A stretch of 64,000 bases of DNA. Origin: an uncultured bacterium. GTDB lineage: Bacteria; Acidobacteriota; Thermoanaerobaculia; Multivoradales; JAHZIX01. Made by a program: the position numbers and the translations under genes. Position 1 is the first letter of the stretch, and each line of letters starts with the position of its first letter. Positions 22,704 to 49,935 of the stretch are shown here, one piece after another. The notes below the pieces were generated by a model, which worked only from the letters and a program-made list of their open reading frames with translations, had not been told where the DNA came from and did no database searches. The stretch lies in NCBI GenBank assembly GCA_965368975.1, contig CBDUPA010000002.1:416001-480000 (forward strand), written 5' to 3'.

Positions 22704-22732
22704 AGTCTACCACCGACCCCCACTTTTGTCTA
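22704..22732 (-). promoter_or_regulatory. Sigma70-type promoter of the mraZ/dcw operon
   Basis: Minus strand TAGACA (22732-22727), 17-nt spacer, TAGACT (22709-22704) preceded by TGG (extended -10). Confidence 0.7.
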
Positions 22733-22763
22733 TTTTCTTCCACCCGCGACCACTCTTGACCAC
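22710..22763 (-). promoter_or_regulatory. MraZ-binding direct repeats (GTGG, 10-bp period)
   Basis: CCAC on the + strand at 22710, 22720, 22740, 22750 and 22760. The missing copy at 22730 coincides with the -35 box. Matches known phased MraZ operators. Confidence 0.85.
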
Positions 22764-22789: not shown

Positions 22790-25700
22790 GTGCTCTCGTC
22801 GAGTCGCGTTATGCTGTGCAACCACCCAGTTCGGGCTTCGCAGACGGATGAAAGAGACCTCCAGTTGACCCAAGACAGCTCGTCTCAGCAAGGCTTTCGC
22901 TGTTCGCCGCAGCAACTGCGCGCCTGGCGCACGGCGGCATCCGGCTGTCTACTCGCCGTGCCCTGGCCAGCCTACCGGCCGCGACAGCTGCAGCAGCGGC
23001 TGAACGCCACCGTCGACCGCCACGAAATCCTGCGCACGCGCGTCGAACTGCCGGAGGGTACCGCGGAACCGGAGCAAGTCCTCGACGAGTGCGGCAGCCT
23101 GCACCTCGTGACGCTCGACCTACGGCGACTGAGCGAGGTGGACGCCGAGCAGATGTTGCCACGCCTGCTTGGCGGACGAGCACCGGTCGTGCTGCGAGTC
23201 CCGGGACCGAAGGCACCTCGACTGGTGCTGGCGCTGCCAGCGACGCTCGGCGACCTGCATAGTCTCGAGCTGTGGGCAGCGGAGCTGGGGGCGATGCATG
23301 AGGAAGCGGAAGAGCCGGAAGAGCCGGTCCAGTACGCGGACGTCGCGGAGGTGTTCCAGCAGCTGCTGGAGTCCGAGGAGACGGCGGAGGGACGGTCGTT
23401 CTGGGATGGGAAGGTGGTCGAGGACCAGCTAGCGGAGATGCCGCCCTCACACCCAGGGCACCCACAGGGAGGCGCCCCTACAGCGGGCACCACTCCGGCA
23501 CCTACCACCTCGGCATTGGCGGAATCGACGCTCCTCGCCACCTACCTGCTCTGGCTCCACCACCTCACCGGACGCGTACGACGCACCCTCGCCGTGCGCC
23601 GCGACGGTCGCGGGCACCCCGGGCTCGACACCGCGCTCGGCCCCTTCGCCCGCTACCTGCCACTCACCGTCACCTACCACCCCGACCTTACCTGGACCTC
23701 TTGGGTCGAGCACGTCGAGGCGGAACTGCGCCAGCTCGACGCGCGGCAGGACTACTTCGATCCGGCACGACTGGGCACCAGCGCTGACGAGGCGTATTTT
23801 CTGCCGTTTCGTTTCGACATCGTCCCGGAAGTTCCTGGCTACCAGCCCACTCTGGCGCTCGACCTCGGCGAACCCTGCCACCTGGGCCTGAGCTGCCGCC
23901 GACAAGGTGCCGGCAGGGAAAGAGAAGGAACCTGGGAGACAACCTGGATCCACGATCCACGCATCTATCCACAAGACGAGGCGGACAAGCTGGCGCGCAG
24001 CTTCACCCAGCTACTCGACGCCTGCGTGAGCGCTCCGGCTAGCACTCGGCTGCCGCCCCTCGTCGAGGTTCTCGACGCCGCGACGCTGCCGATCCTCTAC
24101 GAACCGTCCCCGTTGCCGGATCGCATCGTGCCACTGGCTCGACCCGAGCGCGTGCCGGCATCGTTCGCCCAGCAGCGGCTGTGGCTGGTCGATCGCCTGC
24201 ATCCCGGCTCGGCCATCTACAACCTGCCCCAGGCGTCGCGGCTGCGCGGACCGCTGCAGCTCAATCGCTTGCAGGCCGCGCTCGATACGGTCGTACAGCG
24301 GCACGAGTCCCTGCGCACCGTCTTCGAGGAGCACGATGGCGCGCCGTGGCAGCGCATCCTGCCGCCGTACCATCTGCCCTTGCCGATCGTCGACCTCTCT
24401 GCACTGCCCGAGTCGCGACGCTGGCAGCTGGGCCACGTACTGGCGGCGCGCGAGGCGCGGCGCCCCTTCGATCTGCGCCATGACCCCATGCTGCGAGGCT
24501 TGCTGCTACGCCTGCACACGGACGAGAAGCAAGCGAACGACCACGCCCTGCTGCTGACCCTACATCACATCGCCGGCGACGGCTGGTCCTTGCCGATCCT
24601 GCAGCGCGAGATCGCGACGCTCGCGGCCGGCGGTCCGCGGGCGTTGCCACGCCTACACGTCCAGTACGCGGATTTCACCCTCTGGCAGCGCGCACGGCTG
24701 CAGGGAGCTCACCTGCAGACTCTGCTCGACTGGTGGCGCCGGCAGCTGGCCGAGCAACCAGAGTCCCTCTCCTTGCCCTTCGACCACGCACACAAGCGCG
24801 ACCACAAAGGCCGTCCCATCGCCCCGACCCGCGGCGGCAACCATCGCCACGTGCTGTCGCCAGAGCTGGCTGGGGCCCTCCAAGACCTGGCCGCGACCGC
24901 TGGCGCCAGCTACTTCATGGTGCTGCTGGCAGCGCTGCACGCCTGGTTGAGCCGCATCACCGGCCAGCGCCACGTGGCCGTCGGCAGCGCGACCGCCGGC
25001 CGTGACCGCGTCGAGATCGAGGGGTTGATCGGCTTCTTCGTCAACACGCTGGTGCTGCCGGCCGACCTGGGTTCCGGAAGCGGCCCGAGCTGCTGCCGGC
25101 CGAGCTTCCGGGATCTCCTCGGCCAAGCTCGCAACACCGCACTCGAAGCACAGGCTCACGCCGAGATCCCCTTCGAGCGACTGGTCGCCGAGCTGGCTCC
25201 TCGACGCAGTGCCGACGACGCACCGCTGGTGCAAGTCATGCTGGTGGTGCAGAACCTACCCCAGCAAGCCACCTCTGCAACACCAACTTCGGACACTGCC
25301 GGCGGCCTGCGCCTGGAAGGCCTGCCGAGCGATTCCGTGACGGATGAGGCGGACACCAAGCAGGACTTTCCCGCCCGCTTCGACCTGACCCTCACCGCCG
25401 ATGTCCCGGTACCCGGCCAGGGCGGCTGGCTCAGCCTGACCTACCGCCGTTCGCGCTTCGACTCGACCACCGCGCAGCGGTGCTTGGCACAGCTGGTCCA
25501 GATGCTGCGTGCCGCCGTGGCACGCCCGGACACGGCGGTCGCCGAGCTGGCCCTGTTCGATGCCGGCCAACAACACCAGCTGCTACACGAGTGGAGCCAG
25601 CAAGACGGCCCGCGCTTCGATGTCGACCTGCTCGCGGACAGCTCCCGTGGCAGCGGCACGCTGGCGCGCGATTCCACGACGCTGGCGGGGGTGCTGCCCC

Positions 25701-32995: not shown

Positions 32996-32996
32996 T
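32991..32996 (+). promoter_or_regulatory. Possible -10 box (TATAAT) overlapping the NRPS stop codon, 9 nt before the HD gene ATG
   Basis: Perfect TATAAT in GC-rich DNA; no SD before ATG 33006; no obvious -35. Confidence 0.45.
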
Positions 32997-33005
32997 CCGT
33001 CGCGC

Positions 33006-33620
33006 ATGGACAAACACGACACCACACCTTCCTCGCTGCAACGCCTCGACCAGCAGATCCGCTTTACCCTCGAAATCGACAACCTGAAGCACGTCATCCG
33101 ACGCTGCTACCTGGTCAACGGTGAGCGGCGCGAGAACACCGCCGAGCACAGCTGGCACCTGGCGGTGGGCGCCGTGGTGCTGGCCGAGCACGTCGACGAA
33201 GAGGTCGACCTGCTGCGGGTGCTCAAGATGGCGCTGATCCACGACATCGTCGAGATCGACGCTGGGGACACCTTCGCCTACGATGCGAAAGGCTACGAGG
33301 ACAAGGCCGAGCGCGAACAACTTGCGGCCGAGCGGCTGTTCGGCCTGCTGCCCGAGAATCAGGCCAGCGAGTTCCGCCAGCTGTGGCACGAGTTCGAGGC
33401 CATCGAGACGCCGGAGGCCCGCTTCGCCACCGCCCTCGACCGCCTGATGCCGATGCTGCACAACTACCACACCGAAGGCCGCGCCTGGCGCGAACACGGC
33501 GTCACCAGCGAGCAAGTCCTGGGACGCATGAAAGACATCCGGCCCGCGTCGGAAAGCTTGTGGCAATTCGTCCAGGCGCTGGTACAGGACGCGGTCGACA
33601 AGGGCTTCCTGGCGGCCTGA
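33006..33620 (+). CDS. HD-domain phosphohydrolase (YfbR/HDDC2-like, HD_3)
   Basis: RRENTAEHSWH, LIHDIVEIDAGD, LWHEFE, EARFATALDR. Confidence 0.9.
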   Translation: MDKHDTTPSSLQRLDQQIRFTLEIDNLKHVIRRCYLVNGERRENTAEHSWHLAVGAVVLAEHVDEEVDLLRVLKMALIHDIVEIDAGDTFAYDAKGYEDKAEREQLAAERLFGLLPENQASEFRQLWHEFEAIETPEARFATALDRLMPMLHNYHTEGRAWREHGVTSEQVLGRMKDIRPASESLWQFVQALVQDAVDKGFLAA

Positions 33621-33642
33621 TCCGCCGGACGAAAGGAACGAT

Positions 33643-34563
33643 GTGCCCAACGATTCAGACACCCAGAGCGGCTTCGACATTCAAAGTGTAGAGATCGGCG
33701 GACGCCCCGTCGGCCCCGGACACCCGACCTACATCATCGGTGAGATCGGCATCAACCACAACGGCGATCTCGACGTCGCCCGCAAGTTGATCGACGCCGC
33801 CGCACTGGCCGGCTGCGACGCGGTGAAGTTCCAGAAGCGCACACCAGAGGTCTGCGTGCCACCCGAGCAGCAAAGTGTGATGCGTGAGACACCGTGGGGG
33901 CTGATCAGCTACCTCGACTACCGCTACAAGGTCGAGTTCGGCGAAGACGAGTACCGGCAGATTGACGCCTACTGCAAGGACAAAGGCATCCATTGGTTCG
34001 CCTCACCCTGGGATGTCCCCTCTGTCGACTTCCTCGAAGCCTTCGACCCCGTCTGCTACAAAGTAGCTTCCGCCTGCCTCACCGACGCCGACCTGCTCAC
34101 ACGCCTGCACGCCACCGGCCGGCCGGTGATCCTGTCGACCGGCATGTCGACGCTGGACGAGATCCGCACGGCCGTCGCGCGCCTGGGCGAGGGGCAGGGC
34201 AAGGAACGCTTGTTGGTCGCCCACACCACCAGCACCTATCCCTGCCCGGCGGAAGAGCTGAATCTGCAGATGATCGACACCCTGGCCCAGGAGTTCGGCG
34301 TACCGATCGGCTACTCAGGGCACGAGGTCGGCCTGCAAACCACCTGCGCCGCGGTCGTCCTCGGCGCCTGCTTCGTCGAGCGTCACATCACCGTCGACCG
34401 CGCCATGTGGGGCAGCGACCAGGCCGCCTCGGTCGAGCCCTGGGGCCTGATGCGCCTGGTGCGCGACATCCGCGTGGTCGAAAAGGCCCTCGGCGACGGC
34501 GTCAAGCAGGTGTACGACAGCGAAAAGAAGGCCCGCGCCAAACTGCGTCGCGTGACGTCCTGA
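33643..34563 (+). CDS. N-acetylneuraminate synthase (NeuB) family PEP-dependent synthase, short form without C-terminal SAF/antifreeze domain
   Basis: IIGEIGINHNGD, DAVKFQKR, YKVAS, ILSTGMS, HTTSTYP, GYSGHE, ERHIT. Confidence 0.92.
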   Translation: MPNDSDTQSGFDIQSVEIGGRPVGPGHPTYIIGEIGINHNGDLDVARKLIDAAALAGCDAVKFQKRTPEVCVPPEQQSVMRETPWGLISYLDYRYKVEFGEDEYRQIDAYCKDKGIHWFASPWDVPSVDFLEAFDPVCYKVASACLTDADLLTRLHATGRPVILSTGMSTLDEIRTAVARLGEGQGKERLLVAHTTSTYPCPAEELNLQMIDTLAQEFGVPIGYSGHEVGLQTTCAAVVLGACFVERHITVDRAMWGSDQAASVEPWGLMRLVRDIRVVEKALGDGVKQVYDSEKKARAKLRRVTS

Positions 34564-34595
34564 CACTCTTCTTCTGAATCCCGTCCGGAGAACTG

Positions 34596-35306
34596 ATGCG
34601 TCATCTACTCTTGATCAGCACGTCCCGTACCCACGGCACCGGCTTCCTTGAACACTGCGCCAGAGACCTGCAAGAGCGCTTCCAGAGCGCCGCCGATGCC
34701 GCAAAGCCGGTGATTTTCGTCCCGTACGCCTTCAAGGACTACGACAGCTACATCGCCATCGCGCGTCCAGCGTTCGAGAGCATGGGTTTCACGTGCCGCG
34801 GCATCCACGAAGGCGATCCGCGCCAGAACCTGCAGGAGGCAGGGGCGGTGTTCATCGGTGGCGGCAACACGTTCCGTCTCCTCGACACCTTGTACCGCGA
34901 GCAGCTCGTCGAACCCCTGCGTGAACGGGTCGGGAACGGCATGCCCTACGCCGGTGCCAGTGCCGGCTCCAACGTCGCTACGCTCAACATCCGCACCACC
35001 AACGACATGCCGATCCTCCAGCCACCCACCTTCGACGCACTGGGCTTCATCCCGTTCAACCTCAACCCGCACTACCTGGACCCGGATCCGAACTCCAAGC
35101 ACATGGGCGAGACCCGCGAGACACGGATCAAGGAGTTTCACGAAGAGAACGAGCAGCCGGTGTTGGGACTGCGGGAAGGATCGATGCTGTGGGTGGACGA
35201 CGACACGGCGCAGATCCGTGGTGAAGTCGGGGCACGATTGTTCTTGCGCGGTGAAAAGGCGCGGGAGCTGGAGCCGGGTGCGGATGTGTCGTTCTTGCTA
35301 ACCTAG
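34596..35306 (+). CDS. pepE: Peptidase E (Asp-specific dipeptidase, S51)
   Basis: FVPYA, GGGNTFRLL, GASAGSNV, TTNDMPI, NPHY, HMGETRETRI. Confidence 0.95.
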   Translation: MRHLLLISTSRTHGTGFLEHCARDLQERFQSAADAAKPVIFVPYAFKDYDSYIAIARPAFESMGFTCRGIHEGDPRQNLQEAGAVFIGGGNTFRLLDTLYREQLVEPLRERVGNGMPYAGASAGSNVATLNIRTTNDMPILQPPTFDALGFIPFNLNPHYLDPDPNSKHMGETRETRIKEFHEENEQPVLGLREGSMLWVDDDTAQIRGEVGARLFLRGEKARELEPGADVSFLLT

Positions 35307-35447
35307 CCGCCAGATCTTGGCTTGCCCAGAGCGTTCCGGCACAGACTCCGGCGGTCTGGTATCGTCGCTCTTCCGCCCCGCGGACCACCGATTATCCTGC
35401 GGTATACTTCGCATTCACGCTCATTATCCTCAAAACAAGCTGAGATC

Positions 35448-36869: not shown

Positions 36870-36885
36870 CACCCGGTAGGACGCC

Positions 36886-39800
36886 GTGGAGCAACAGAGC
36901 ACCGGCCTTGAGATCGCGGTCATCGGCTTGGCTGGACGCTTCCCTGGTGCCCCGGACATCGAGACCTTCTGGCGCAATCTCGACGCTGGCGTCGAGAGCA
37001 TTCGCTCCTTCAGCGACGAGGAACTGCTGGAGGCCGGTGTTGCGCTGGAGATACTGGCGGATCCGGCGTACGTCCGGGCGCGCGGCTATCTCGACGACAG
37101 CGAGCTGTTCGACGCGGAGCTGTTCGGCTTCAATGCACGCGAGGCGGAGATTCTCGATCCCCAGCAGCGCTTGTTCCTGGAAGTCGCTTGGAGCGCACTT
37201 GAGCACGCCGGCTACGGCCGCGGCGGCGAACGACCGTCAGTAGGCGTCTACGCTGGCGTCAGCCTCAACGGCTATTTCCTGAACAACCTGCAGACGCGCC
37301 CCGAGGTGCTGGCGGCGGTCGGTACGATGCAGGTCGGCACCGGAATCGACAAGGACTTCCTGGCGACGCGCGTTTCCTACAAGCTGGATCTGCAAGGTCC
37401 CAGCGTCAGCGTCCAGACCGCGTGCTCGACGTCGCTGGTGGCGGTGCACCTGGCGTGCCAGGCACTGCTCTGCGGTGAATGTGACATCGCCCTGGCAGGC
37501 GGTGCGTCGTTGGGTGTACCGCCGGTCTCCGGCTACCTGTACCAGGAAGGCGGCATCCTGTCTCCGGATGGGCATTGCCGCGCTTTCGACGCTGACGCCG
37601 CGGGCTGTCTGGCCGGGCACGGCGCCGGCGCGGTGGTGCTCAAGCGGCTCGACGACGCGCTGGCCGACCGCGACACGCTGTACGCGGTGATCAAGGGCTC
37701 GGCAATCAACAACGACGGGGCGCTGAAGGCTGGCTACACGGCACCGAGCGTCGACGGACAGGCTGCCGTGGTGCGGGCAGCACTGCGCGTGGCCGAGGTC
37801 GAGCCGTCGTCCATCGGCCTGATCGAAGCGCATGGCACGGGCACGCCGCTGGGAGATCCGATCGAGATCACCGCGCTGCGGCAGGCTTTTGAGATCGACG
37901 AGCAGGCGCTCGACCCCGGCAGCTGCGCGATCGGCTCGGTGAAGACGAACATCGGTCATCTCGATGCCGCTGCCGGCATCGCCGGCCTGATCAAGGCCGT
38001 GCAGGCGCTGCGCTACCGGCGACTGCCACCGAGCCTGCACTTCCGCACGCCCAATCCCCAGCTGCAACTCGATCGCTCGCCCTTCTTCGTGCCGGTCGAG
38101 AGTGCGGCTTGGGCGGCGGCAGACGGGGCTGGTTGGCCCCGGCGGGCGGGGGTGAGCTCCTTCGGCATCGGCGGGACCAACGCCCACGTGATCCTGGAGG
38201 AAGCGCCGTGCATCGATGCGGCGGACCGGCGCGAGACGGCTCGACCCTGGCAGCTGCTGTGTCTCAGCGGACAGCGTCAGGAGGCCATCGAGCAGCTGTG
38301 CCACGCACTGGCAGCACAGCTGAGCGAGACGGGGGACGTCCCTCTTGCAGACGTCGCCTACACTCTCCACCTCGGTCGGCGACCCTTGCGGCACCGCGCG
38401 GTTGTGGTAGCCCGAGACATCGCCGACGCGGCGCGAGTACTGGCTGGCGACATGCCCGAGCGCCTGCTGCACGGCACGGCCACCCAGGGCCGCACGCCCG
38501 TCGCGTTCTTGTTCTCTGGTCAGGGCACACAGTACCCCGGTATGGCGCGCGAGCTGTACGAGCGCGAGCCCGTGTTCCGGCGCCACCTGGACTACTGCCT
38601 GGAGTTGCTGCAACCCCACCTGGACACGGACCTGCGTCGTTGGTTGCTGCCGGTGGACAGTGAAGAGGGGCAGGCCGCGGAGGCGTTGCGGCGCACCGAG
38701 CTGACGCAGCCGGCACTGTTCGCCGTCGAGCATGCGCTGTACGAGCTGTGGCAGAGCTGGGGCGTCGAGCCGGACGCGCTGTTGGGGCACAGCATCGGCG
38801 AGTGGGTCGCCGCTTGCCGGGCCGGCGTGCTGACGCTCGAGGCGGCGCTCGAGGCCATCGCGCTGCGCGGACGCCTGGTGGCACAGTGTCCGCTGGGCGC
38901 CATGCTCAGCGTTCCCTTGTCGGAAGCGGAACTCGAGACCTGGCTGACAGGCCGGAACGTCGAGATCGCGGCGATCAACGCGCCACGGCTGTGCGCGGTG
39001 GCCGGGCCGCATGCCGACGTCGAAGCGCTGGAGGCTGAGCTGCGCGCCGACGGCGTCGAGGTTCGGCGGCTACACACCTCGCACGCGTTTCATACGCATG
39101 CCCTGCAGCCAGCGGCGACAGCCTTGCAGGAGCACCTGAGGCATGTCGAGTTGCGCGCGCCGCACTTGCCTTTTGTCTCCAATGTCACCGGAACCTGGAT
39201 CACCGAGAGCGAAGCCACCGACCCCGCCTACTGGGGTCACCAGCTTCTGCGGCCGGTGCGCTTCGCGGACGGCCTGGGGACGCTGCTCGGTTCTTCGCTC
39301 GGAGGCGGCCGGCGCTTGCTGCTGGAAGTCGGCCCTGGGCACACCTTGAGCCGGCTGGCTCGGTTGCATCCGAGCTTCGCCGAGGATCGAGGAGGTCCAC
39401 TTCCCGTGGTGGCATCTCTACCACCGGCACCGAGAGCCGGCATCGCCACCCAGAGCGCGAAGACGTCGACCGAAGATGCGCAAGCGTCGATGCTGACGGC
39501 CCTCGGCCGCCTGTGGCAGTGCGGCGTCCAGGTCGACTGGCAGCTTCTGTACGACGGCCAGGCGCGACGCCGGCGGCCGTTGCCGACGTATCCGTTCCAG
39601 CACCGTCGCTACTGGCTCGACGCCGCTCCTCGGCAGGAGGCCAGCGGCGCTAGCGCGACGAGCCGGCAGCCGCTACCGAGATGGTTCTGGCGACCGGTCT
39701 GGCAACAGGCTCCTCCGGCAACGGCCGCTGCACTCCCGGGCGACCGGCCACGACACCTAGTGCTCGCAGGCGAGCCGGGCAAGGCTCGTGACGAACTGGC

Positions 39801-42459
39801 CGGGGAGTTGGACAGCCAGGGCTGGGCGGTACGACCGGTGGCGTCGCCGGGCACACGGGAGACATGGCTGCACCTGCTGCGACAGCTGCGGGAAGCAGAA
39901 GCCTCACCCCGACGTATTGTGCATCTCGGTTCCTACGGCACGGCTTTCGATGGAACTGGGACCGAGGCGGTAAGCCGACCTGATTTTCACACCTCCTTCA
40001 CGCCTTTGCTGACGCTGGCACAAGCTCTGAGTGAGCTGGGTCCCAGCGCGGATTCCAATGCCAATGCAGCCAATGCGAACGGCAGCGAGGGCGGCATCGA
40101 CGTGCTGGCGGTGACGGTCGCGGCGTGGCCGGTCACCGGCGACGAGCACGCCCGAGCGGAAGAAGCGCTGACGTTGGGCCCGCTGCGAACGTTGCCGCAC
40201 GAAGTTCCTGGCATTCACTGCCGGGCAGTGGATATCGAGCAGACCTCGGCACGGCGGCTGGCTGCGGCGCTGTCGGAGTCGCTGGAGGTACAGCCACTGG
40301 AGGGAATGGATCTGCTGGCGCTACGGGGACGGCGTCGTTGGTGCTGGCACTGGGAGCCGGTTGAACTGCCCGGCTCGTCAGAGGCGCGCCAGCGAACTGA
40401 AGGCGTCTACCTGATCACCGGCGGTCTCGGGGGTCTGGGACGCGTGTTCGCTGAGCACCTCTTGACGCACGGCGCCACGGTGGTGACCATCGGTCGGTCC
40501 ACGGGGGCAGGGGAGGGGGTTGAGGCCTTGATCGCCGCCGGGGGCCCATGCTGGCTCCACCTGACCGCGGACGTCAGCGACGAGGACGCGATGCGGCAGG
40601 TCTTTGCCACTATCGGGGAGCGCTGGGGGCGGCTCGACGGCGTCATTCACGCTGCCGGGATTCCCGGTGAGGGTGCGTTGGCGCGTATCTCCGCTACGGA
40701 CGCTGAAGCCGTACTGGCACCCAAGGTCAGAGGCACGCGGGTATTGGATCGGCTGCTGCGCGAACCTGCCTCGAATGGTGAACCCTGGCTGCATCAGCTG
40801 GAATTCTTCCTGCTCTGCGGCTCACTGACCGGTCACCTCGGCGGTCCCGGTCAGGTCGCCTACACCGCCGCCAATCTCTTCCTGGACGCCTATGCACAGC
40901 GGACAGCGCTGGAACTGGAAGACCTGCCGTCTGCTCCGCATGTGATCGCGGTGGACTGGGACGCCTGGGCCGAAGTGGGCATGGCGGCCGCGGCCGTGCG
41001 AGGAGTGGCCTCGCCGCGCGAGCGCTCTGGCGACGAGAAGGACAGCCAGCGAATCGACGCTCATCCTCTGCTCCAGCAGCGGCGGATCGAGGGCGAGACG
41101 GTGGTCTTCACCAGCCGCCTGCACGCGAGCGATACCTGGGTACTGGCGGATCACCGAACGGGCGGCCGGTCGGTGCTTCCGGGTACTGGCTATGTCGAGC
41201 TGCTGCGCACCGCGCTGCTGCTGCACGGAGATGAGGCTAGCGTCGAGGTCGGAGCTGAAGGAGGCGTCGAGATCTCACAGCTGATCTTGCTGCTGCCCAT
41301 GGCTTTTGACGATGCGGCGCGTGAGGTGCGGGTTCGCCTGCGACCGGAAGCTGGTGACGGGTTCAGCGCGGAGGTGGCCAGTCGAGGGACCAGTCGAAGT
41401 GACACGGACAAGAGCTGGTTGCTGCACGCGCAAGCTCGGGTCACCGCAGGCGCCGGCGCCGGGAGCACTACCAAAGCCGAAGATCTGGACAGCTTTCCGT
41501 CGCGGGTCACCGATGAGGACGAGGCGGGAGACAACCCGCTGTTCGACTTCGGCCCCCGCTGGCGCTGCATCCGGCAAGCTCGCACGACCCTCGAAGAGGC
41601 AGAGCATGCCCGCCTGCGACTGCCGGCGGAGTTCACGGCGGATCTGCAGGACTTCCCCCTGCACCCCGCCCTGCTCGACGCCGCGGTCGCGGCCCGGCCA
41701 CCGAGCGAAGCGCTGGAAGAGGCCGCGTACCTGCCCTTTGCCTACGATCGAGTACATATCCACCGTCCTCTGACGGCCGAGATTCTCAGCCGCATCACTC
41801 GGCACTCGACGAATCCTCCCAACTCTGCCAAGTTCGACGTGGTGGTCTTCGATACCGACGGTCGAGTGCTGGTGGAGATCGAAGGCTACACCTTGCGCCG
41901 GCTGAGTGCTGAGCAGCTCGCCGTACCGACCACGCAGCCGGCCGAGGAAGCACCGCTGGCACAGGCCATTCGCAATGCCGAGGGAATCGAAGTGCTCGAG
42001 CGGATCCTGGCGGACCAGCTACCGCAACGAGGCCTGGCGCAGGTGGCCGTCTCGACGGTTGATTTCGCAGCGCGGCTCGCACGGCTCGGCGAGACCCGCG
42101 CGCAGGTCGAGGGAGACGGCACCACCGCGAGCCACGCCAGACCCAACCTCTCGACGACCTACGTGGCGCCGAGTTCGGAGTTCGAGCGACACGTCGCCGA
42201 GGTGTGGAGGGAGTTGCTCGGCGTCGAGGAGCTCGGAGTTCACGACGACTTCTTCGAACTGGGTGGCCATTCGATCTTGGCAACGCAGAGCGCGGCCCGG
42301 TTGCGGGAGAAGCTCGGCACGGACATGCCCTTGGACGAGTTCTTCGAAGCCAACACCATCGCGCAGCTGGCGCAGCGTCTACTCGACTTTGAAGCCGAGA
42401 CAGCGGCGGAGGGCGCCGGCGCGAGATCTTTGGGCGACATCGAAGAAGGCTCCCTGTGA
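36886..42459 (+). CDS. Type I cis-AT PKS module KS-AT-KR-DH-ACP (hybrid-type KS)
   Basis: KS VQTACSTS, HGTGT, KTNIGH with DKDFLATRVSYKL. AT GHSIG/HAFH (malonyl). KR ITGGLGGLG...YTAAN. DH HRTGGRSVLPG/HPALLD. ACP GGHSIL. Confidence 0.95.
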   Translation: MEQQSTGLEIAVIGLAGRFPGAPDIETFWRNLDAGVESIRSFSDEELLEAGVALEILADPAYVRARGYLDDSELFDAELFGFNAREAEILDPQQRLFLEVAWSALEHAGYGRGGERPSVGVYAGVSLNGYFLNNLQTRPEVLAAVGTMQVGTGIDKDFLATRVSYKLDLQGPSVSVQTACSTSLVAVHLACQALLCGECDIALAGGASLGVPPVSGYLYQEGGILSPDGHCRAFDADAAGCLAGHGAGAVVLKRLDDALADRDTLYAVIKGSAINNDGALKAGYTAPSVDGQAAVVRAALRVAEVEPSSIGLIEAHGTGTPLGDPIEITALRQAFEIDEQALDPGSCAIGSVKTNIGHLDAAAGIAGLIKAVQALRYRRLPPSLHFRTPNPQLQLDRSPFFVPVESAAWAAADGAGWPRRAGVSSFGIGGTNAHVILEEAPCIDAADRRETARPWQLLCLSGQRQEAIEQLCHALAAQLSETGDVPLADVAYTLHLGRRPLRHRAVVVARDIADAARVLAGDMPERLLHGTATQGRTPVAFLFSGQGTQYPGMARELYEREPVFRRHLDYCLELLQPHLDTDLRRWLLPVDSEEGQAAEALRRTELTQPALFAVEHALYELWQSWGVEPDALLGHSIGEWVAACRAGVLTLEAALEAIALRGRLVAQCPLGAMLSVPLSEAELETWLTGRNVEIAAINAPRLCAVAGPHADVEALEAELRADGVEVRRLHTSHAFHTHALQPAATALQEHLRHVELRAPHLPFVSNVTGTWITESEATDPAYWGHQLLRPVRFADGLGTLLGSSLGGGRRLLLEVGPGHTLSRLARLHPSFAEDRGGPLPVVASLPPAPRAGIATQSAKTSTEDAQASMLTALGRLWQCGVQVDWQLLYDGQARRRRPLPTYPFQHRRYWLDAAPRQEASGASATSRQPLPRWFWRPVWQQAPPATAAALPGDRPRHLVLAGEPGKARDELAGELDSQGWAVRPVASPGTRETWLHLLRQLREAEASPRRIVHLGSYGTAFDGTGTEAVSRPDFHTSFTPLLTLAQALSELGPSADSNANAANANGSEGGIDVLAVTVAAWPVTGDEHARAEEALTLGPLRTLPHEVPGIHCRAVDIEQTSARRLAAALSESLEVQPLEGMDLLALRGRRRWCWHWEPVELPGSSEARQRTEGVYLITGGLGGLGRVFAEHLLTHGATVVTIGRSTGAGEGVEALIAAGGPCWLHLTADVSDEDAMRQVFATIGERWGRLDGVIHAAGIPGEGALARISATDAEAVLAPKVRGTRVLDRLLREPASNGEPWLHQLEFFLLCGSLTGHLGGPGQVAYTAANLFLDAYAQRTALELEDLPSAPHVIAVDWDAWAEVGMAAAAVRGVASPRERSGDEKDSQRIDAHPLLQQRRIEGETVVFTSRLHASDTWVLADHRTGGRSVLPGTGYVELLRTALLLHGDEASVEVGAEGGVEISQLILLLPMAFDDAAREVRVRLRPEAGDGFSAEVASRGTSRSDTDKSWLLHAQARVTAGAGAGSTTKAEDLDSFPSRVTDEDEAGDNPLFDFGPRWRCIRQARTTLEEAEHARLRLPAEFTADLQDFPLHPALLDAAVAARPPSEALEEAAYLPFAYDRVHIHRPLTAEILSRITRHSTNPPNSAKFDVVVFDTDGRVLVEIEGYTLRRLSAEQLAVPTTQPAEEAPLAQAIRNAEGIEVLERILADQLPQRGLAQVAVSTVDFAARLARLGETRAQVEGDGTTASHARPNLSTTYVAPSSEFERHVAEVWRELLGVEELGVHDDFFELGGHSILATQSAARLREKLGTDMPLDEFFEANTIAQLAQRLLDFEAETAAEGAGARSLGDIEEGSL

Positions 42460-45400
42460 ACCGAGCTATCGAAACACTGTGGCTGGCCCTGGACAGCGGC
42501 TTGCAGCTCTGGGTCGACGGCGATCAACTGCGCTTTCGAAGCGCCACGGGAGCTTTGACGGACGAGCTGAAGGCACGGCTCAAAGCGCACAAGACGGAAC
42601 TGCTCGACCTGATCGGTCCGGGACGCAAGCTGTGCCTGCCGGCGTTGGCCCAGCAGAGACTGTGGTTCTTGCAGCAACTCGACCCGCACAGCCCGGCGTA
42701 CAACCTGCCGGCCGTGTCGCGACTGCAGGGGCAGCTGGATGCCCATGCCTTGGCGCGGGCGCTGGCGCGCATCGTCGAGCGTCACGAGAGCTTGCGGACC
42801 GTGTTCGTGCTGCTCGACGGCCGGGTCGCCCAGTCCGTGGTGACGGCGCGGACATCGGTGCCCGTAGTGGACCTGAGCCGCTTGCCACCGGCCTTGGTGG
42901 AGCGCCTGGCGCAAGAGCTGGCGTCGCGGGAAGTGCAGAGCGCCTTCGACCTGGCTAGCGGACCGCTGGTGCACTTCCGACTGTTTCGACTGGGTCCAGA
43001 GGATCACGCGCTGGTGATCAACATCCACCACAGCGTCTATGACGGCTGGTCGGTGGGCTTGTTGTTCGGTGAGCTGGTGGCCTTGTACAACTTCGAGGTC
43101 GATGGGCGCGGCGAGCCGGCAGTGCCACCTGGAGTCCCACCCGTTCCGGACCTACCGCTGCAGTATGCGGACTACGCTCTGTGGCAACGCGAGCAGCTGC
43201 AAGGCGCGCTTCTGGAGCGCCTGCTCGACTACTGGCGCGAACGGCTACCACGCGTGCCGTCGGCCCTCGACCTACCGGGTCAACTCACACTGCGGCGCAA
43301 CCCTGTTGCCCGAAACGACGACGGGTCCCCGAGGGATGCCGGCTTCCTGGGCGACGAGGTGCTCTTCAGCTTCCCGGGCGACGTGCGCGATCGGCTCGAA
43401 ACACTGGCTCGGCAGCGTGGCACCAGCCTGCCAGTGGTGCTGCTCGCCGGCTTCCAGACGCTGCTCCACGCCTACACCGGCGCACCGGCGGTGACGCTGG
43501 GTCAACCAACAGCGAACCGGACTCGGCGCGAGGTGGAAGCCCTGATCGGCTTCTTCGCCAACATCGTGGTCTTGCACACCGATCTGCGGGGTGATCCGAG
43601 CTTCGACGAGCTTCTGACGCGCGCGCAGATAACGGCGCGCGGCGCCGGAGCGCACCAGGAGTTACCCTTCGACCGCTTGGTGGAGGAGCTGGCACCCGAA
43701 CGGGACCCGGCACGAAGGAATCCGCTGTTCCAGATCTTCTTCGCGGTGCAGAACGCGCCGCGCGGCGAGGCGCGGCTACGGGGCCTGACACTGCAACCCC
43801 TGCCCTTCGCGGCACGGGTGACGCGCTTCGACCTGGAAGTCCACCTGACACCGGCACCAGACAGTGCCAGTGGCGGCAGTGGCAGTCGCAGTAGCAGCGG
43901 CATCCTGTGCCACGTGATCTACAGCACAGCCCTGCTGGAGCGCACCGCCGTGGAGCGGCTGCCACGGCATCTGCTGCGCATTCTGGAGCAGGCGGTAGAG
44001 CGGCCGGCGCGGCACCTTGGCGGGTTCCAGCTGCTGACTCGGGCCGAGACTCGGCAGCTGCTCGACTGGACGACAACTGGGGCGCACGGACCGGCAACCG
44101 AGCAGGCACTCTTGGGCGCCTTCAACGCCCACGTCGCCGCCGGGCCAGAGGCAGCCGCACTGGTCGGCGACCACGGATCCATCCTGGCAACGCGACGCGA
44201 AGTGCAGGACGCGGCGACTCGCGAGGCTCAGGAGCAGGGCAACAATCCGCTCCAGGCACTACTCGATGTCGGTGGCCTGCCGGCGTTACTGGAGGCAGCA
44301 AACCCGCACCTGCGCCTGCTCGGACCGACCGGACAACCGGCACCGATCGGCGTCTGGGCTTCCATCGACGTCTGTCTGCCGCGGGCCGGCGAGATGACTC
44401 CCGTGCCCAGCCGAGCCTTCCAGGGACGTTGGCGCTCCAACGGCGGCATCGAGCTGCGCCCGGCTGGAAGCCCGGTTGGCAGCAGGCCCGCCGGAACCGT
44501 GGATGCACACCGGCTGTGGCGGCAGGGTGCTCTTGTTGACACCCGGGTGATCGAACGTCGGCTGCTGGACTTGCGCTTTGGCGAGACTGGACTGAGCGGT
44601 GCGGCGGTGCGTGCACGGCGGGTGTTCAGCAACCCAGCGCGGGCGTGTGACCGCGGGGAGAATGATAGCGAACTCGTGGCGTGGGTGACGGCGAGCGTAT
44701 CGCTGGCACCGGAACGGCTGGACGCCGTAATGCGCGAGACCTTTTTGGCGAGGCAGGTAGACCCGCGTTGGATTCCACAGGCAATCGTCCAGGTGTCCTT
44801 GTTGCCCCTGACCCAGGACGGCCAGCTCGACGAGCGCGCGCTGCAGCGGGTGGAAGTGCCGACACCGGACATCCTACAGCGCTGGCGAACCCGCTTGCGG
44901 GCACTGCCGGAAGTTCGTGACGTGGAGGTAGTGTCGATCCAAGTGCCGCGGACGCTGGACCGCTACCACCGGGACGACCTTGTGCCTCCCGGCGAAGGTG
45001 TCTCGCCAGCTGCCACGGACACCACAACGCGGACCGCTGCTCGCGAGGCGGCCGTTCTCGAGATTCCGCCGGCCGAGACGCCGCCTGCCGAGGCATCGTC
45101 GACCGTGGCGGATGGCGGTCCGCTGGAGCTGCCGGCCGAGGCGCCAAGAACGCTGGGAGAGGCTCTGCTGCGAACAGCGCGGGAGCATGCCGAGCACGGC
45201 ATTGCCTACATCGGCGCGGATGGTAGCGAGGACCGGCAAAGCTATCCGCAGCTGCTTGTCGAGGCGCAGGCGATCCTCGGCGGCCTGCGCCGGGACGGCC
45301 TCGTCGCGGGCGACTATGTGGTGCTGCAGTTCGAGGACATCCGCCTGCACCTGACGACTTTCTGGGCCTGCATCCTCGGTGGTCTCGTACCGGTGACCGT

Positions 45401-48400
45401 GGCGGTACCGCCGTCCTACGAGGTCGACGAAGCCGGCGAGTACAACGCCGTGGCGCTCAAGCTGCTCAACACTTGGCGCTTGCTCGGCCATGCCGCGGTG
45501 CTGACGCAGGTATCGCTCGCTGGCGCACTCGCAAGGTTGGGACTCGAGCCGCCGATCCATGCCATTGTGGTCGATCCCTTCCTCGAGCGGAAGCCGGCGA
45601 CACCGCGTACCGCCGACTCCCACGACGTGGCTTTCTTGCAGCTGACCTCCGGCAGCACGGGCATTCCGAAGTGTATCCAGGAGACCCACCACGGCATCGC
45701 CCACCACATCGAGGGCTCGCGCCTGGTCAACGGCAACAGCGCACGCGACATCACGCTGAACTGGCTACCACTGGACCACGTGGTGCCGATGCTCACCTAC
45801 CACATCAAGGACGTCTATCTGGGCTGCCGGCAAGTGCAGCTGGCAGGTGCCCGCGTGTTCGCGGATCCACTGTGCTGGCTGGATGCCCTGGAAAGGCACG
45901 GCGTCACCCACAGCTGGGCGCCCAACTTCGGCTTCAAGCTCGTTGCCGATGCCCTGGCGCAAGCATCGCCGTCGCGGTCCGCACAGGTCTGGGATCTCAG
46001 CCGCCTGCAGTTGCTGATGAATGCGGGCGAGCAAGTGACGCTGCCGGTGGTCGACGACTTTCTCCGGCGCACGGCACCCTTCGATGTGCGACCCGAAGTG
46101 ATGCAGCCGGCCTACGGCATGGCTGAGCTGTGTACCGCCATGACCTACGCCAACGGCTTCCGGCCGGAAACTGGCGCCTTTCGCTGCCGCAAGGCTGGCC
46201 TGGGCGAGGCTCTCGTGGCCGCCGACACTGGGGATCCTCTGGGTGTCGACTTCATCGACGTCGGCCCGCCGATTCCGGGGGTACGGCTGCGCGTGGTGAA
46301 TGCCGACAGCCGACCGTTACCGGAGGGAGTCGTGGGTCGGCTACAAGTCGCGGGCGCCATCGTCACTCCCGGCTACCTCAACAACGAGGCGGCCAACCGG
46401 GAGGCTTTCCCGCGAACCTACGAAGACGACGGCGTCTGGTTCCACACCGGCGATCTGGCCTTCCTGCGAGGTGGTCACCTCACGATCACGGGACGCGAGA
46501 AGGAAGTGATCATCGTCCGCGGGGCCAACTTCTACTGCTACGAGATCGAGGACATCGTTTCGAGCGTTGACGGCGTCGCGGCCACCTTCAGTGCCGCCTG
46601 CGCACTGGAAGACCCCGTGACCGGCACCGAAGGGCTGGCGATTTTCTTCGTCCCGGAGTCACCAGATCCTGAGGCGTCGCATTGCAGGTTGGACACGACT
46701 GTGTCTCGCCGCGTGGCCCGGCTGGCCGATGCAGTGCAGGCGGCAGTGACGGAGCGGTTGGGAATCAGTCCGTCCGTGGTCTTGCCGCTGGCGCCCGAGG
46801 ACTTCCCAAAGACGACGAGTGGCAAGATTCAGCGTACTCGGCTGAAGGAGGCGCTGGAGACCGGTGAGTTCGACGAGCTGCGGCGCCGACTCGACTTGCA
46901 GGTCGATGCGCTGGCTGGGCCGCTCGGTACAGAGAGAACGGTACCAGCCTGGTTTCACCAGCGCGTATGGCGGCGTTGCCCGCTATCAGCCAAGCCGCGC
47001 CGGAACCGCGAGATACGCGTTCGGATGCTCGTTCCAAGGGATGCGAGTGGGTCTGCGGAGAGCACGCGTCTAGCCGCAGTGGTGCGAGAACAGCTGCAGC
47101 AGCAAGAGGCTACCGTCGACGGGTACCAGCTGCCGGCCACCGCGGAGCTGGCGCAAGCGTTACAGCCAGGAGACACTCTGATCTACCTGGGAGCCTGGAA
47201 TGCTACTCCGCGCGTTGAGACAGCGGAAGATCTGACCAGGCTGCAGGAAGTTTGGGTTCGAGATGTGCTGGAGTTGGTGAGTTCGCTGCAGACCGTACCG
47301 CCGGAACGACGACGCGGGCTGCACCTCCTGGTTCCGACGGCAAGCTCGCACCATGTGGGACCCGCAACGGGCGACCCTTCGGTCGGCACGGCGTCCGATG
47401 AGGCAGAATCGGCCCGGGGGTCGCAAGCAAGGGAACCGCAAGGCCGCAATGGCTGGGTGTACGCTGGGGTCTCCTCGGTGTTCAAGACTTGGAGCCAGGA
47501 GCAGCCCTGGCTGCAGGCACGCCACCTGGACCTGCCTGCCACTGCTTCGCATCTCGAACTGGCGCGGCACCTGGTGGCCGAGGTCGCGGCGCAGCACGGA
47601 GCCGGAGCGGTGAGCGCGGCAACCCTGGAGGACGTCGCCTGGCGGGATGGGACACGCTATGTGACTCGCTTGCGCCCCCTGAGGATGAAACCACCGGCGG
47701 CGGAGTCCTCAGCGGTCGAGATCTTCTCACGCCGTAGCCGCTGGTTGTTGACCGGCGGGTTGGGAGGGATTGGCCGACGGCTGGCAGCGTGGCTCCTACG
47801 GGAGCGTGGCGCCCGGCTCTTGCTGACCGGGCGACGGTCGGCCCAGGATTCCGACATCGTGCGCGAACTCCAGGCGCTCGCGACACTCGGCGACGTCACC
47901 TACGTGTCCTGCGACGTGACCGACGGTGCCGCATTGGAAACGGCCGTTGCGAGGGCCGAGAAGGCTTGGGGCGCGACGCTCTCGGGAGCCGTGCATCTGG
48001 CTGGCAGCTACCACGAAGCGCTGCTGTCGGATGAGAGCGTCGAGGGCTTCCTGCGCCCGTGGCGGTCGAAGGTGCTGGGCGGATGGCAATTACGCCAGCT
48101 TCTCGCGGCGCGGCCAGAAAGCCAGCTCATCGCCTTCTCCTCGGTCAACGGATCTCTTGGCGGCCGCGGTGTCGCAGCCTACGGGGCGGCGAATGCGGGG
48201 CTCGAAGGACTGTGCGCGATGCCTTGCCGTGACGGACCACGAGTTCACACGCTGGCCTGGAGCCTCTGGCAGGACGTCGGCATGAGCCAGGGTTTCGCCG
48301 CTGGCGAGGCTGCGCGGGCGCGCGGCTTCCTGCCGGTCTCGGCACCGGCGGGGTTGCTCTCTCTACAAGCCGTGCTTGGCCGGATGGGTCCTCAGGACGC

Positions 48401-49811
48401 TTCGCGGCAAGAAGCCTCGGCGCTTCTCGTGGGACTCGACGACCGGCAGCCACACGTGCGGCAGATCCTCGAGCTGCCGGGCAGCGAGCCCAAGGACCTG
48501 CGTGCTTGGCAGCTCGCGGCTGCCATGGTGATCGAGGGCGGGGTGCAGCCACGGCTGGATGACTTCGCTTTGCGGGACCGCTTCGGCACCCCGGCTCCGT
48601 GCAGCACCCACGAAGTCGACACCTTACCGCGCGGCACGGACGGTGGCGTCGACACGCCCACATTGCGCAGGCGGCTTCAGCAGCTGGTCACGGGTCGGAC
48701 GACAGTAGACCGGCACGTGGCACCGCGCAGCGACCTGGAAGCCCGACTGGCTGAGCTGTGGCAAGAGCTCTTGGGTGGTGCTTCACCTAGCGTGCGAGAC
48801 AATTTCTTCCGTCTGGGCGGCCACTCCCTGTTGGCGTCGCGACTGGTTCTGGAGATCGAACGCCGTCTCGACACGCAGCTCCCCGTCTCGGCGCTGTTCC
48901 AGGCACCAACCATTGAACGCTTGGCGCGGATCATCGAGGCCCAGGAGCGGGGAGCCGGAGGCAGGGCCTGGTCGCCGCTTGTGCCGCTACAGCCGGAAGG
49001 CGATAGGACGCCCTTCTTTTGCGTTGCACCGATCATGGGCACGGTGTTTCCCTACTTCGAGCTGGCGCAGTTACTTGGGCCCGGTGCCTTGGACCGTCGG
49101 CGGCCGTTCGTCGGCGTCCAGCCGCTGGGCCTTGCTACTGGCCAGACGGCGCTCGCCACGATCGAGGAGATCACGGAATACTTCCTGACCGAGATCCGGG
49201 CACTGCAGCCGACGGGCCCGTACTTTCTGGGCGGCTGGTCCTTCGGTAGCTTTGTGGTCTACGAGCTGACGCGCCGGCTACGCCAGCAGGGAGAGGAGAT
49301 CGCCCTGGCCGCGCTCATCGATACGCCAGCACCGCTACCGTCGCAACGACCGTCCTTCCTGCACGGTCTGCGCTTCCTCTTCGCCACTTTGCTGCGAAAC
49401 TTTTGGCCGTGGGTCAAGGATTACTTCGCCCTGCAACGCACTGGCGATTTCGGAGACGAGAAAGACAGCCGCGGTCTGTGGCAACGCTTGTTGGAGCGAG
49501 CAACGCTGGCCGAGGTGATCCCAGAGGAGTCGCGAGAGGTGATGTCGCACCAGCCACAGATCCGTGCCATGTTGCGCGCCATGCGCGCCAACAGCGAGGC
49601 GATGGGACGCTACCAACCGCGAGCCGCAGACGTGCGCGTGCTGCTGCTGCGCACCGAGCACAGCTGGAGTCGCAGCGAGGACGAGACGCTCGGCTGGAGC
49701 GAACTGGCCCTGGGCGGCGTCGAGGTGGAGCGGCTGCCGGGCAATCACATGACGCTGCTGCGGAAGCCGCACGTGGAGACGGTAGCGCGAGTGCTCGCGC
49801 GGTACCTGTAG
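42456..49811 (+). CDS. Terminal NRPS depsipeptide module: docking domain-C-degenerate A-A(keto acid)-KR-T-TE
   Basis: TubC-N-like LWVDGDQLRFRS..GALTDELK; C HHSVYDG; A TSGSTGIPK, NWLPLDHV, YGMAE, PKTTSGK; KR LTGGLGGIG...FSS...YGAAN; T GGHSLL; TE GWSFG and GNHM. GTGA overlap with the PKS stop. Confidence 0.93.
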   Translation: MNRAIETLWLALDSGLQLWVDGDQLRFRSATGALTDELKARLKAHKTELLDLIGPGRKLCLPALAQQRLWFLQQLDPHSPAYNLPAVSRLQGQLDAHALARALARIVERHESLRTVFVLLDGRVAQSVVTARTSVPVVDLSRLPPALVERLAQELASREVQSAFDLASGPLVHFRLFRLGPEDHALVINIHHSVYDGWSVGLLFGELVALYNFEVDGRGEPAVPPGVPPVPDLPLQYADYALWQREQLQGALLERLLDYWRERLPRVPSALDLPGQLTLRRNPVARNDDGSPRDAGFLGDEVLFSFPGDVRDRLETLARQRGTSLPVVLLAGFQTLLHAYTGAPAVTLGQPTANRTRREVEALIGFFANIVVLHTDLRGDPSFDELLTRAQITARGAGAHQELPFDRLVEELAPERDPARRNPLFQIFFAVQNAPRGEARLRGLTLQPLPFAARVTRFDLEVHLTPAPDSASGGSGSRSSSGILCHVIYSTALLERTAVERLPRHLLRILEQAVERPARHLGGFQLLTRAETRQLLDWTTTGAHGPATEQALLGAFNAHVAAGPEAAALVGDHGSILATRREVQDAATREAQEQGNNPLQALLDVGGLPALLEAANPHLRLLGPTGQPAPIGVWASIDVCLPRAGEMTPVPSRAFQGRWRSNGGIELRPAGSPVGSRPAGTVDAHRLWRQGALVDTRVIERRLLDLRFGETGLSGAAVRARRVFSNPARACDRGENDSELVAWVTASVSLAPERLDAVMRETFLARQVDPRWIPQAIVQVSLLPLTQDGQLDERALQRVEVPTPDILQRWRTRLRALPEVRDVEVVSIQVPRTLDRYHRDDLVPPGEGVSPAATDTTTRTAAREAAVLEIPPAETPPAEASSTVADGGPLELPAEAPRTLGEALLRTAREHAEHGIAYIGADGSEDRQSYPQLLVEAQAILGGLRRDGLVAGDYVVLQFEDIRLHLTTFWACILGGLVPVTVAVPPSYEVDEAGEYNAVALKLLNTWRLLGHAAVLTQVSLAGALARLGLEPPIHAIVVDPFLERKPATPRTADSHDVAFLQLTSGSTGIPKCIQETHHGIAHHIEGSRLVNGNSARDITLNWLPLDHVVPMLTYHIKDVYLGCRQVQLAGARVFADPLCWLDALERHGVTHSWAPNFGFKLVADALAQASPSRSAQVWDLSRLQLLMNAGEQVTLPVVDDFLRRTAPFDVRPEVMQPAYGMAELCTAMTYANGFRPETGAFRCRKAGLGEALVAADTGDPLGVDFIDVGPPIPGVRLRVVNADSRPLPEGVVGRLQVAGAIVTPGYLNNEAANREAFPRTYEDDGVWFHTGDLAFLRGGHLTITGREKEVIIVRGANFYCYEIEDIVSSVDGVAATFSAACALEDPVTGTEGLAIFFVPESPDPEASHCRLDTTVSRRVARLADAVQAAVTERLGISPSVVLPLAPEDFPKTTSGKIQRTRLKEALETGEFDELRRRLDLQVDALAGPLGTERTVPAWFHQRVWRRCPLSAKPRRNREIRVRMLVPRDASGSAESTRLAAVVREQLQQQEATVDGYQLPATAELAQALQPGDTLIYLGAWNATPRVETAEDLTRLQEVWVRDVLELVSSLQTVPPERRRGLHLLVPTASSHHVGPATGDPSVGTASDEAESARGSQAREPQGRNGWVYAGVSSVFKTWSQEQPWLQARHLDLPATASHLELARHLVAEVAAQHGAGAVSAATLEDVAWRDGTRYVTRLRPLRMKPPAAESSAVEIFSRRSRWLLTGGLGGIGRRLAAWLLRERGARLLLTGRRSAQDSDIVRELQALATLGDVTYVSCDVTDGAALETAVARAEKAWGATLSGAVHLAGSYHEALLSDESVEGFLRPWRSKVLGGWQLRQLLAARPESQLIAFSSVNGSLGGRGVAAYGAANAGLEGLCAMPCRDGPRVHTLAWSLWQDVGMSQGFAAGEAARARGFLPVSAPAGLLSLQAVLGRMGPQDASRQEASALLVGLDDRQPHVRQILELPGSEPKDLRAWQLAAAMVIEGGVQPRLDDFALRDRFGTPAPCSTHEVDTLPRGTDGGVDTPTLRRRLQQLVTGRTTVDRHVAPRSDLEARLAELWQELLGGASPSVRDNFFRLGGHSLLASRLVLEIERRLDTQLPVSALFQAPTIERLARIIEAQERGAGGRAWSPLVPLQPEGDRTPFFCVAPIMGTVFPYFELAQLLGPGALDRRRPFVGVQPLGLATGQTALATIEEITEYFLTEIRALQPTGPYFLGGWSFGSFVVYELTRRLRQQGEEIALAALIDTPAPLPSQRPSFLHGLRFLFATLLRNFWPWVKDYFALQRTGDFGDEKDSRGLWQRLLERATLAEVIPEESREVMSHQPQIRAMLRAMRANSEAMGRYQPRAADVRVLLLRTEHSWSRSEDETLGWSELALGGVEVERLPGNHMTLLRKPHVETVARVLARYL

Positions 49812-49905
49812 CCGGTACCCTCCGAGCAACCGGAATCGGAGGCGCCTGACGGCGCAGGGTGGCCCCATGTGGCCGCTCCTACCCGGTGTGCTCGTGACCG
49901 GCTAA

Positions 49906-49935
49906 CTCAGTTCGTCAGACCTCAGTTCGTCAGAC
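49906..49935. repeat. Perfect 15-nt tandem duplication (CTCAGTTCGTCAGAC x2) spanning the atpC stop codon
   Basis: 49906-49920 is identical to 49921-49935. Confidence 0.95.

Follow-up and report, generated by a model that had tools for sequence, protein, structure and literature searches.

A seven-gene locus in a 64,000-nucleotide stretch of an uncultured Acidobacteriota genome (the window; positions 416001-480000 of contig C2 in the source genome, G000) is probably a patchwork, in which pieces of two biosynthetic assembly lines have come to lie beside four unrelated genes through lineage-specific rearrangement. The locus holds two nonribosomal peptide synthetase (NRPS) genes, NRPS1 and NRPS2, and a one-module polyketide synthase (PKS) gene. 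The first-pass annotation had read it as one pathway, or the back half of a larger one, scattered among core genes; the scattered pathway pieces stand, and their membership in a single pathway is poorly supported. Blocks of one to a few genes would have been rearranged in the lineage, leaving NRPS1 as the middle part of one NRPS line, the PKS and NRPS2 as the intact back half of another, hybrid line, and the four remaining genes as material moved out of their own operons.

The evidence that separates NRPS1 from the PKS lies in its tail. Tails, defined as the residues behind the last carrier domain, were compared across G000, G001 and G002, the latter two belonging to the kin (same-family genomes, labelled G001, G002, G003, G005 and G021). 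Fourteen subunits lie directly upstream of a KS-headed gene (6 in G000, 2 in G001 and 6 in G002), and every one of them has a tail of 28-87 residues; 13 carry at least five Lys or Arg residues within 12 residues, and the 14th has a net charge of +15. Among subunits upstream of a C-headed gene, a basic patch occurs in only 4 of 23. The NRPS1 tail is acidic, with 17 residues, a single Lys/Arg and a net charge of -4. Tails as short as this were seen twice, both in G002 and both preceding C-headed genes. A wider count over other phyla gave net-positive ends at five of seven junctions, the two exceptions being PKS-to-PKS junctions. With this basic signature lacking, the claim that NRPS1 feeds the PKS is not supported.

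The head of NRPS1 also points elsewhere. Its N-terminal condensation-like domain is of the interface type and, within the genome, matches best the heads of genes located behind TauD or C-ending genes. At 11 of 11 kin loci with a domain of this type, a C-ending subunit and/or TauD is found upstream, and the domain is directly followed by A. Reitz et al. in 2019, cited in PMC12230676 and PMC12971057, reportedly described interface-domain beta-hydroxylation units of siderophore NRPSs. NRPS1 resembles such units in its N-terminal C-like domain without a catalytic motif and differs from them in that a C domain follows instead of an A domain; mraZ lies upstream, and no TauD gene or C-ending subunit adjoins. 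The TauD genes of G000 are on other contigs. Judged by this domain context, the NRPS1 N-terminus calls for a different upstream partner. This, together with the separate homes that the four middle genes have in the kin, speaks against one pathway. The genes of the locus and its flanks are listed below.

22139-22579, minus strand: mraZ, head of the dcw operon, left flank, divergent
22865-32995, plus strand: NRPS1 (longest open reading frame from 22790, 22790-32995)
22880-24049, plus strand: N-terminal condensation-like domain of NRPS1, interface type, without HHxxxDG
33006-33620, plus strand: HD_3-family hydrolase (Pfam/NCBIfam)
33643-34563, plus strand: short NeuB-family nonulosonate synthase, scoring below the TIGR03569 cut-off
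34596-35306, plus strand: pepE dipeptidase, single copy
35448-36869, plus strand: ffh (signal recognition particle protein), above the TIGR00959 cut-off, single copy
36886-42459, plus strand: one-module PKS, KS-AT-KR-DH-ACP
42456-49811, plus strand: NRPS2, TubC_N-C-(A remnant)-keto-acid AMP ligase-KR-T-TE
49922-50311, minus strand: atpC, end of the atp operon, right flank, convergent

The seven co-directional reading frames are each open and in the order first annotated, and the annotated gaps of 10, 22, 32, 141, 16 and -4 bp are all correct. NRPS1 likely starts at TTG 22865, a position taken from a motif check and from where related heads begin.

Architecture of the two probable assembly lines

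The PKS retains the Cys-His-His residues of its KS, the Ser of its AT and every checked catalytic motif. The AT motif is of the malonyl type and the head of the protein is short; proteins with this length and domain set are common. The KS belongs with those of KS-headed genes that follow NRPS subunits, in keeping with its annotation as a type that accepts peptidyl chains, and NRPS2 bears the docking domain (TubC_N) and the TE that had been ascribed to it. The PKS tail matches the tails that precede TubC_N domains; the genome has two such domains, each with a matching tail just upstream. Docking through a short motif and a beta-hairpin is described in PMC12284057 and 10.1101/349555. By this sequence pattern, the docking ends of the PKS and NRPS2 are compatible. 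The last residues of NRPS1 also bear a loose likeness to this tail motif, and direct docking of NRPS1 on NRPS2 is conceivable. Domains and docking ends together support the PKS and NRPS2 as one back half, whose predicted contribution is a ketide unit and a hydroxy-acid ester.

The best solved relative of NRPS2 is StsA (PDB 6ULW). Aligned with StsA, NRPS2 has Val in place of the amino-binding Asp235 (A4 motif, residues 1103-1109) and a Gly-Met motif at Gly1221-Met1222. A hydrophobic residue for Asp235 and the Gly-Met motif mark keto-acid depsipeptide modules (PMC7923214, PMC13643306). The KR has its NADPH motif and the catalytic Tyr1909, and the A remnant was assigned from an A10-like stub at 783 and weak hits only. 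The module is of the predicted keto-acid depsipeptide termination type (CrpD-M2/ClyF/StsA). The architecture had been proposed as undescribed, which does not hold for the terminal module, already described in the same two papers. CrpD-M2, Dol15D-M2 and StsA (PMC13643306) share with NRPS2 the C domain, degenerate A remnant, keto-acid AMP ligase, KR and T; in contrast to them, the module here is terminal and stands behind a KS-AT-KR-DH-ACP gene.

The PKS would extend an incoming peptidyl chain with malonyl-CoA and, by reduction and dehydration, turn it into an alpha,beta-unsaturated (vinylogous) amino acyl unit. NRPS2 would adenylate a 2-keto acid, reduce it to the 2-hydroxy acid and join this as an ester, and the TE would release the product. 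The proposed chemistry follows from the motifs and from the work on ClyF and Dol15D/CrpD. The product, in which a vinylogous amino acid would be ester-linked to a hydroxy acid, would come from modules of known types.

The closest published parallel in gene order is ClyE-ClyF of the chlorosphaerolactylate pathway of Sphaerospermopsis (PMC7923214), where a PKS gene is likewise followed by a depsipeptide synthetase. ClyF is a C-A-KR-T-TE protein; it activates and then reduces a keto acid, makes an ester and frees the product by its TE (PMC7923214). NRPS2 shares the size of ClyF-like proteins (about 2300-2450 aa), and cyanobacterial proteins of that size and domain set are among its matches. ClyE differs from the PKS in having an inactive KS0/AT0 and in taking a halogenated fatty acyl chain from FAAL (fatty acyl-AMP ligase) and ACP (PMC7923214); in the PKS the KS, AT, KR and DH motifs are intact. 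FAAL, ACP and halogenase genes of the cly/noc lactylate type were not found at the locus with Pfam/NCBIfam. A two-gene end of the PKS-NRPS2 type was seen at 1 of 76 loci scanned (L093, from a Blastocatellia metagenome-assembled genome). No close ortholog above about 56% identity was found for the PKS, for NRPS2 or for NRPS1, the search with the last being dominated by generic C domains, and all NCBIfam named-pathway models scored below their cut-offs. Named top matches of the PKS and NRPS1 often come from Thermoanaerobaculia or other Acidobacteriota.

NRPS1 has the domain order I(interface-like)-C-A-T-C-T-C-A-T, with three HHxxxDG motifs, two intact A3/A10 motifs and three carrier serines. It ends in T without a release domain, as first annotated. 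At the other end, a loading module is absent; the protein begins with the interface-type domain, and mraZ is divergent upstream. The middle module is missing its A domain. T1-C2 and T2-C3 are reciprocal best in-genome hits (T 65%, C 50-52%), and the A-less module looks like an old T-C duplication. The first A domain may load both T1 and T2. NRPS1 probably receives its chain from elsewhere and would hand it over to a C-headed subunit that is also encoded elsewhere.

The megasynthases of the locus most likely work in trans with distantly encoded subunits, found by their docking ends, and would share the genome's single PPTase and single MbtH. The seven genes include no PPTase, MbtH, exporter, regulator or mobility gene (Pfam/NCBIfam), in agreement with the first-pass annotation; the one PPTase and the one MbtH, both away from the locus, serve the whole genome, so their absence here is uninformative. 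Four orphan G000 genes have a basic tail and no KS behind them (C2:549072-556355, C6:2-13171, C22:1-8583 and C40:20095-28515), and four to five KS-headed G000 genes, the PKS of the locus included, lack a nearby donor. One of the four basic-tailed orphan NRPS genes is probably the donor of the PKS. We infer pairing in trans of the dispersed subunits from such ends.

It is unlikely that NRPS1, the PKS and NRPS2 act in that order in one pathway, as a once contiguous cluster into which four passengers were inserted. Such a cluster would agree with the gene order, the strand and the domain logic (T to KS to TE), and interrupted yet complementary pairs exist close together in the genome (for instance C5:281798 and C5:290238, with two kinase genes between). 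Both halves have similar contig depth in the sludge runs X1 and X2, and 3.9 kb is a short distance between two megasynthase groups when 56 groups are spread over 7.1 Mb. However, the NRPS1 tail falls short of the length and charge of all 14 KS donors, its interface-type head would still need an upstream partner, and three of the passengers stem from three separate operons.

That the dispersed megasynthases are relics of broken clusters and make nothing is quite unlikely. Many groups lack a start or a release domain, the interface-type domain of NRPS1 lacks its usual neighbours, and the second module lacks an A domain. Against this, the three genes have uninterrupted reading frames (10, 5.6 and 7.4 kb) and every checked catalytic motif, and solitary genes across the genome retain docking ends, orphan tails being roughly equal to orphan heads in number. 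Logan contigs from four runs in two studies contain a relative whose nucleotide identity, estimated from the listed differences, is roughly 90-93%; it holds homologous PKS and NRPS2 DNA over kilobases. The arrangement conserved in this relative and the intact motifs argue for maintained genes.

The middle genes and the integrity of the assembly

The four genes between NRPS1 and the PKS are, by their context in the kin, most likely unrelated passengers moved from their own operons. In the kin, pepE lies directly upstream of mbtH at 4 of 4 loci; in G000 the two are separated. The sole mbtH of G000 (C24:19116-19367) is far from any NRPS, and its counterparts directly behind pepE are in a core region (L042, L056, L057 and L031-L032). 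The neuB-family gene lies between a cytidylyltransferase gene and a conserved gene of a polysaccharide operon at the three of three kin loci fetched; exceptions are a longer form in G003, 45% identical, and one gene between in G005. The polysaccharide operon of G000 is on C6, where the two former neighbours of neuB overlap in a -4 bp junction. On this gene order, neuB is displaced from its cytidylyltransferase/glycosyltransferase operon, which appears to have closed up on C6. Both ffh and atpC have other neighbours in the kin, in contexts conserved among them, with no megasynthase downstream of atpC at 4 of 4 loci, and mraZ is preceded by an mfd/PPIase block, also at 4 of 4. The HD gene occurs in one of five same-family genomes, 56% identical, with another neighbour and no NRPS link within 1.5 kb flanks. 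No C, KS, I or T domain was found at 63 ffh, pepE, neuB, dcw and atp loci from the kin and metagenomes; the metagenome scan for pepE covered 27 loci, none closer than 64%.

In G000, neuB, pepE and ffh are single-copy; a second ffh match, at 123 bits, we infer to be FtsY. A duplicated core gene beside a cluster can signal self-resistance. A self-resistance copy was rejected here, as ffh, neuB and pepE have no second copy elsewhere.

Selected coupling, in which megasynthases are kept beside essential genes such as ffh, or on a shared transcript with them, as a safeguard against deletion or silencing, is distinctly improbable. In its favour, ffh is single-copy, the PKS begins 16 bp after the ffh stop, no terminator-like site was found between the two, and at 7-10% nucleotide divergence the arrangement is still kept. 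From the sequence, transcription is likely to continue from ffh into PKS-NRPS2, which would make them co-transcribed. Between 32000 and 37500, no sigma-70-like promoter was found and terminator-like sites are at chance level; Rfam gave no match anywhere in the window. The genome-wide counts, in which 85 megasynthase open reading frames were used, do not favour coupling. Kin-core orthologs lie within one gene of a megasynthase in 5 of 296 cases, against 96 of 4455 other genes, and within two genes in 10 of 296 against 183 of 4455. The 202 flanking proteins, judged by eye with no matched random control, have mostly unrelated, non-essential functions; their Pfam families include BioY, endonuclease V, Dus, GroES, TypA, UppS, kinases and some true tailoring genes. 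Short gaps are also the norm in G000. Gaps of at most 40 bp separate 44% of 3259 same-strand neighbour pairs and occur at 19 of 63 same-strand boundaries between a megasynthase and another gene, and the tight spacing at the locus is no more than chance for this genome.

A chimeric assembly is very improbable. The assembly is of metagenome type by appearance (7.13 Mb in 59 contigs), the last part of ffh is a low-complexity Gly-coding tract, and the ffh-PKS junction has no bridge among the contig pieces listed. The other five of the six internal junctions are bridged by contigs of the relative in runs of two other studies, which makes misassembly unlikely. NRPS1-HD is bridged in X2 record 6, X5 record 14 and X6 record 22; HD-neuB-pepE-ffh in X1 record 2 and, from neuB on, also in X2 record 7; and PKS-NRPS2 in X1 record 3. 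The bridging comparison covered the six internal junctions, and on the atpC side 78 bases inside the stretch. In the soil runs X5 and X6, positions 39338-49999 are thinly covered and HD to ffh is covered; there is no joining contig, and these runs were not used as evidence for this part. Each junction is placed exactly between two intact genes, and except for a short 55-bp match behind NRPS2 no repeat at the junctions recurs elsewhere in the genome. The genome has no further ffh, neuB or pepE copy, and is 99.3% complete with 0.09% contamination.

Two causes of the rearrangement were considered and rejected. Repeats or mobile elements at the junctions are not supported, since no repeat apart from the 55-bp match is shared; repeat hits of at least 100 bp at 90% number only 78 genome-wide. 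Recent recombination between NRPS genes was set aside because the locus has no match above 83% over 120 bp.

Several features were observed at the edges of these genes. The Ffh C-terminus (window 36770-36869) is a Gly-rich low-complexity tail, and the tails of the kin vary in length and sequence. Upstream of mraZ, at 22710-22763 on the minus strand, there are three short GTGG direct-repeat pairs, presumably resembling an MraZ operator, in a pattern not above chance across the window. The likely start of NRPS1 is about 100 bp away, so an additional effect of MraZ on the promoter of this divergent gene is conceivable. At the end of the dcw operon, directly downstream of ftsZ, lies a subclass B1 metallo-beta-lactamase gene (4970-5695, minus strand; above the NCBIfam cut-off, NF033088); the kin have other genes in this place. 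AtpA (52731-54458, minus strand) is 575 aa long and matches its family model in two stretches; its orthologs in the kin are also 579-583 aa, which makes the insertion family-wide.

Dispersal of megasynthase genes across the genome

The interleaving is not peculiar to this locus, which is one of dozens of its kind in the genome. Counted from open frames (C16:137022 included), G000 has 88 megasynthase open reading frames, which span 916 kb in 56 same-strand groups. Thirty-nine groups do not touch a contig end; 20 of these interior groups end in a bare T with a tail of at most 56 residues, and 6 end in TE. Among the cluster stretches fetched from G002, four of five run to TE. Comparison of the best 111 condensation domains of each genome (out of 151 candidates in G002 and 173 in G021) gave 33-35 groups in G000, 15-16 in G002 and 12-16 in G021; G003 has 95 domains in 17 groups, and all 223 condensation domains of G000 form 40-45. 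The condensation domains of G000 are in about twice as many groups as those of the kin, which are NRPS-rich too, but clustered. The clusters of G002 and G001 are not orthologous to the G000 genes (best domain hits 30-62%).

Synteny was compared on three contigs, G002 C3, G003 C19 and G001 C1. The core contigs G002 C3 (392 kb) and G003 C19 (938 kb) carry no megasynthase; G000 C2 carries six groups. Among 89 consecutive shared pairs, there are 36 synteny breaks in G000 versus 11 in G003, at similar divergence (median identity 61% versus 64%).

Several points count against the patchwork reading. The tail rule is an empirical sequence pattern from three related genomes, and a precedent for basic NRPS-to-KS tails was not found in the literature searched. 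Searches turned up no intact orthologous cluster from which the true partners could be named. Skew at fourfold sites is -0.15 in NRPS1 versus +0.10 in the PKS and +0.14 in NRPS2, which proves little because 3 of 21 adjacent pairs differ as much. The condensation domains of G000 lie on 27 contigs, and assembly breaks inflate their group count. Immediate neighbours stay together in G000 at the rate seen between the kin (0.71-0.76 in three of four comparisons, and 0.50 in the smallest), which implies shuffling of small blocks and not of every gene.

Other candidate split units were observed in the genome. On C11:26237-33078 (L161), an ACP-KS-AT gene accompanies an ACP-aminotransferase gene, and C2:503442-508358 (L141) is an orphan C-A-T gene; they have similar Gln/Leu-rich linker ends and may form a split beta-amino fatty acid unit. 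C1:153129 and C7:70199 have orphan tails similar to that of C19:66222, and C6:92823 has an orphan head similar to that of C19:59091, the in-locus partner of C19:66222. By their resemblance, these ends would be a second docking class split across loci. Contig ends overlap within NRPS genes (the ends of C21 and C39 with the starts of C22 and C40, and the start of C10 with the end of C15), so some orphan genes are halves of longer genes. C22 and C40 share 1.1 kb at 99%, and a gene on C21 that begins with FAAL may run on into the C22 gene with the basic tail.

Split NRPS clusters are known from Pseudomonas lipopeptides (PMC9948697), and pyoverdine genes can occupy up to five loci (PMC12971057). 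G000 resembles these in that subunits of one line would be at distant loci. The splits described in these papers concern single pathways whose loci keep regulators and exporters, whereas in G000 most lines are seemingly in dozens of pieces and the pairing is predicted from their ends. Genome-wide NRPS dispersal in Acidobacteria was not described in the papers available to the search. Each module type is known; what looks new is the split cluster taken to a genome-wide extreme. A broader proposal, that the genus has largely abandoned clustering and that its approximately 88 megasynthase genes, placed singly among unrelated ones and served by one PPTase and one MbtH, assemble in trans via few docking codes, is possible but doubtful. 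Under it, several orphan donors and acceptors would have a code in common, and the PKS-NRPS2 cassette could then cap more than one upstream line. If true, the genome would be a natural mix-and-match library, unreadable to cluster-based genome mining.

Genome mining presumes that neighbouring megasynthase genes make one product. Here, that presumption would join two probably non-interacting lines and miss their real partners. The locus is less special than first thought, and genome-wide declustering, if the subunits work in trans, is the part worth following. If assembly in trans holds, G000 and its close relatives would provide a natural set of docking pairs for the study of specificity, and a test of why biosynthetic genes cluster, with the clustered same-family kin as controls.

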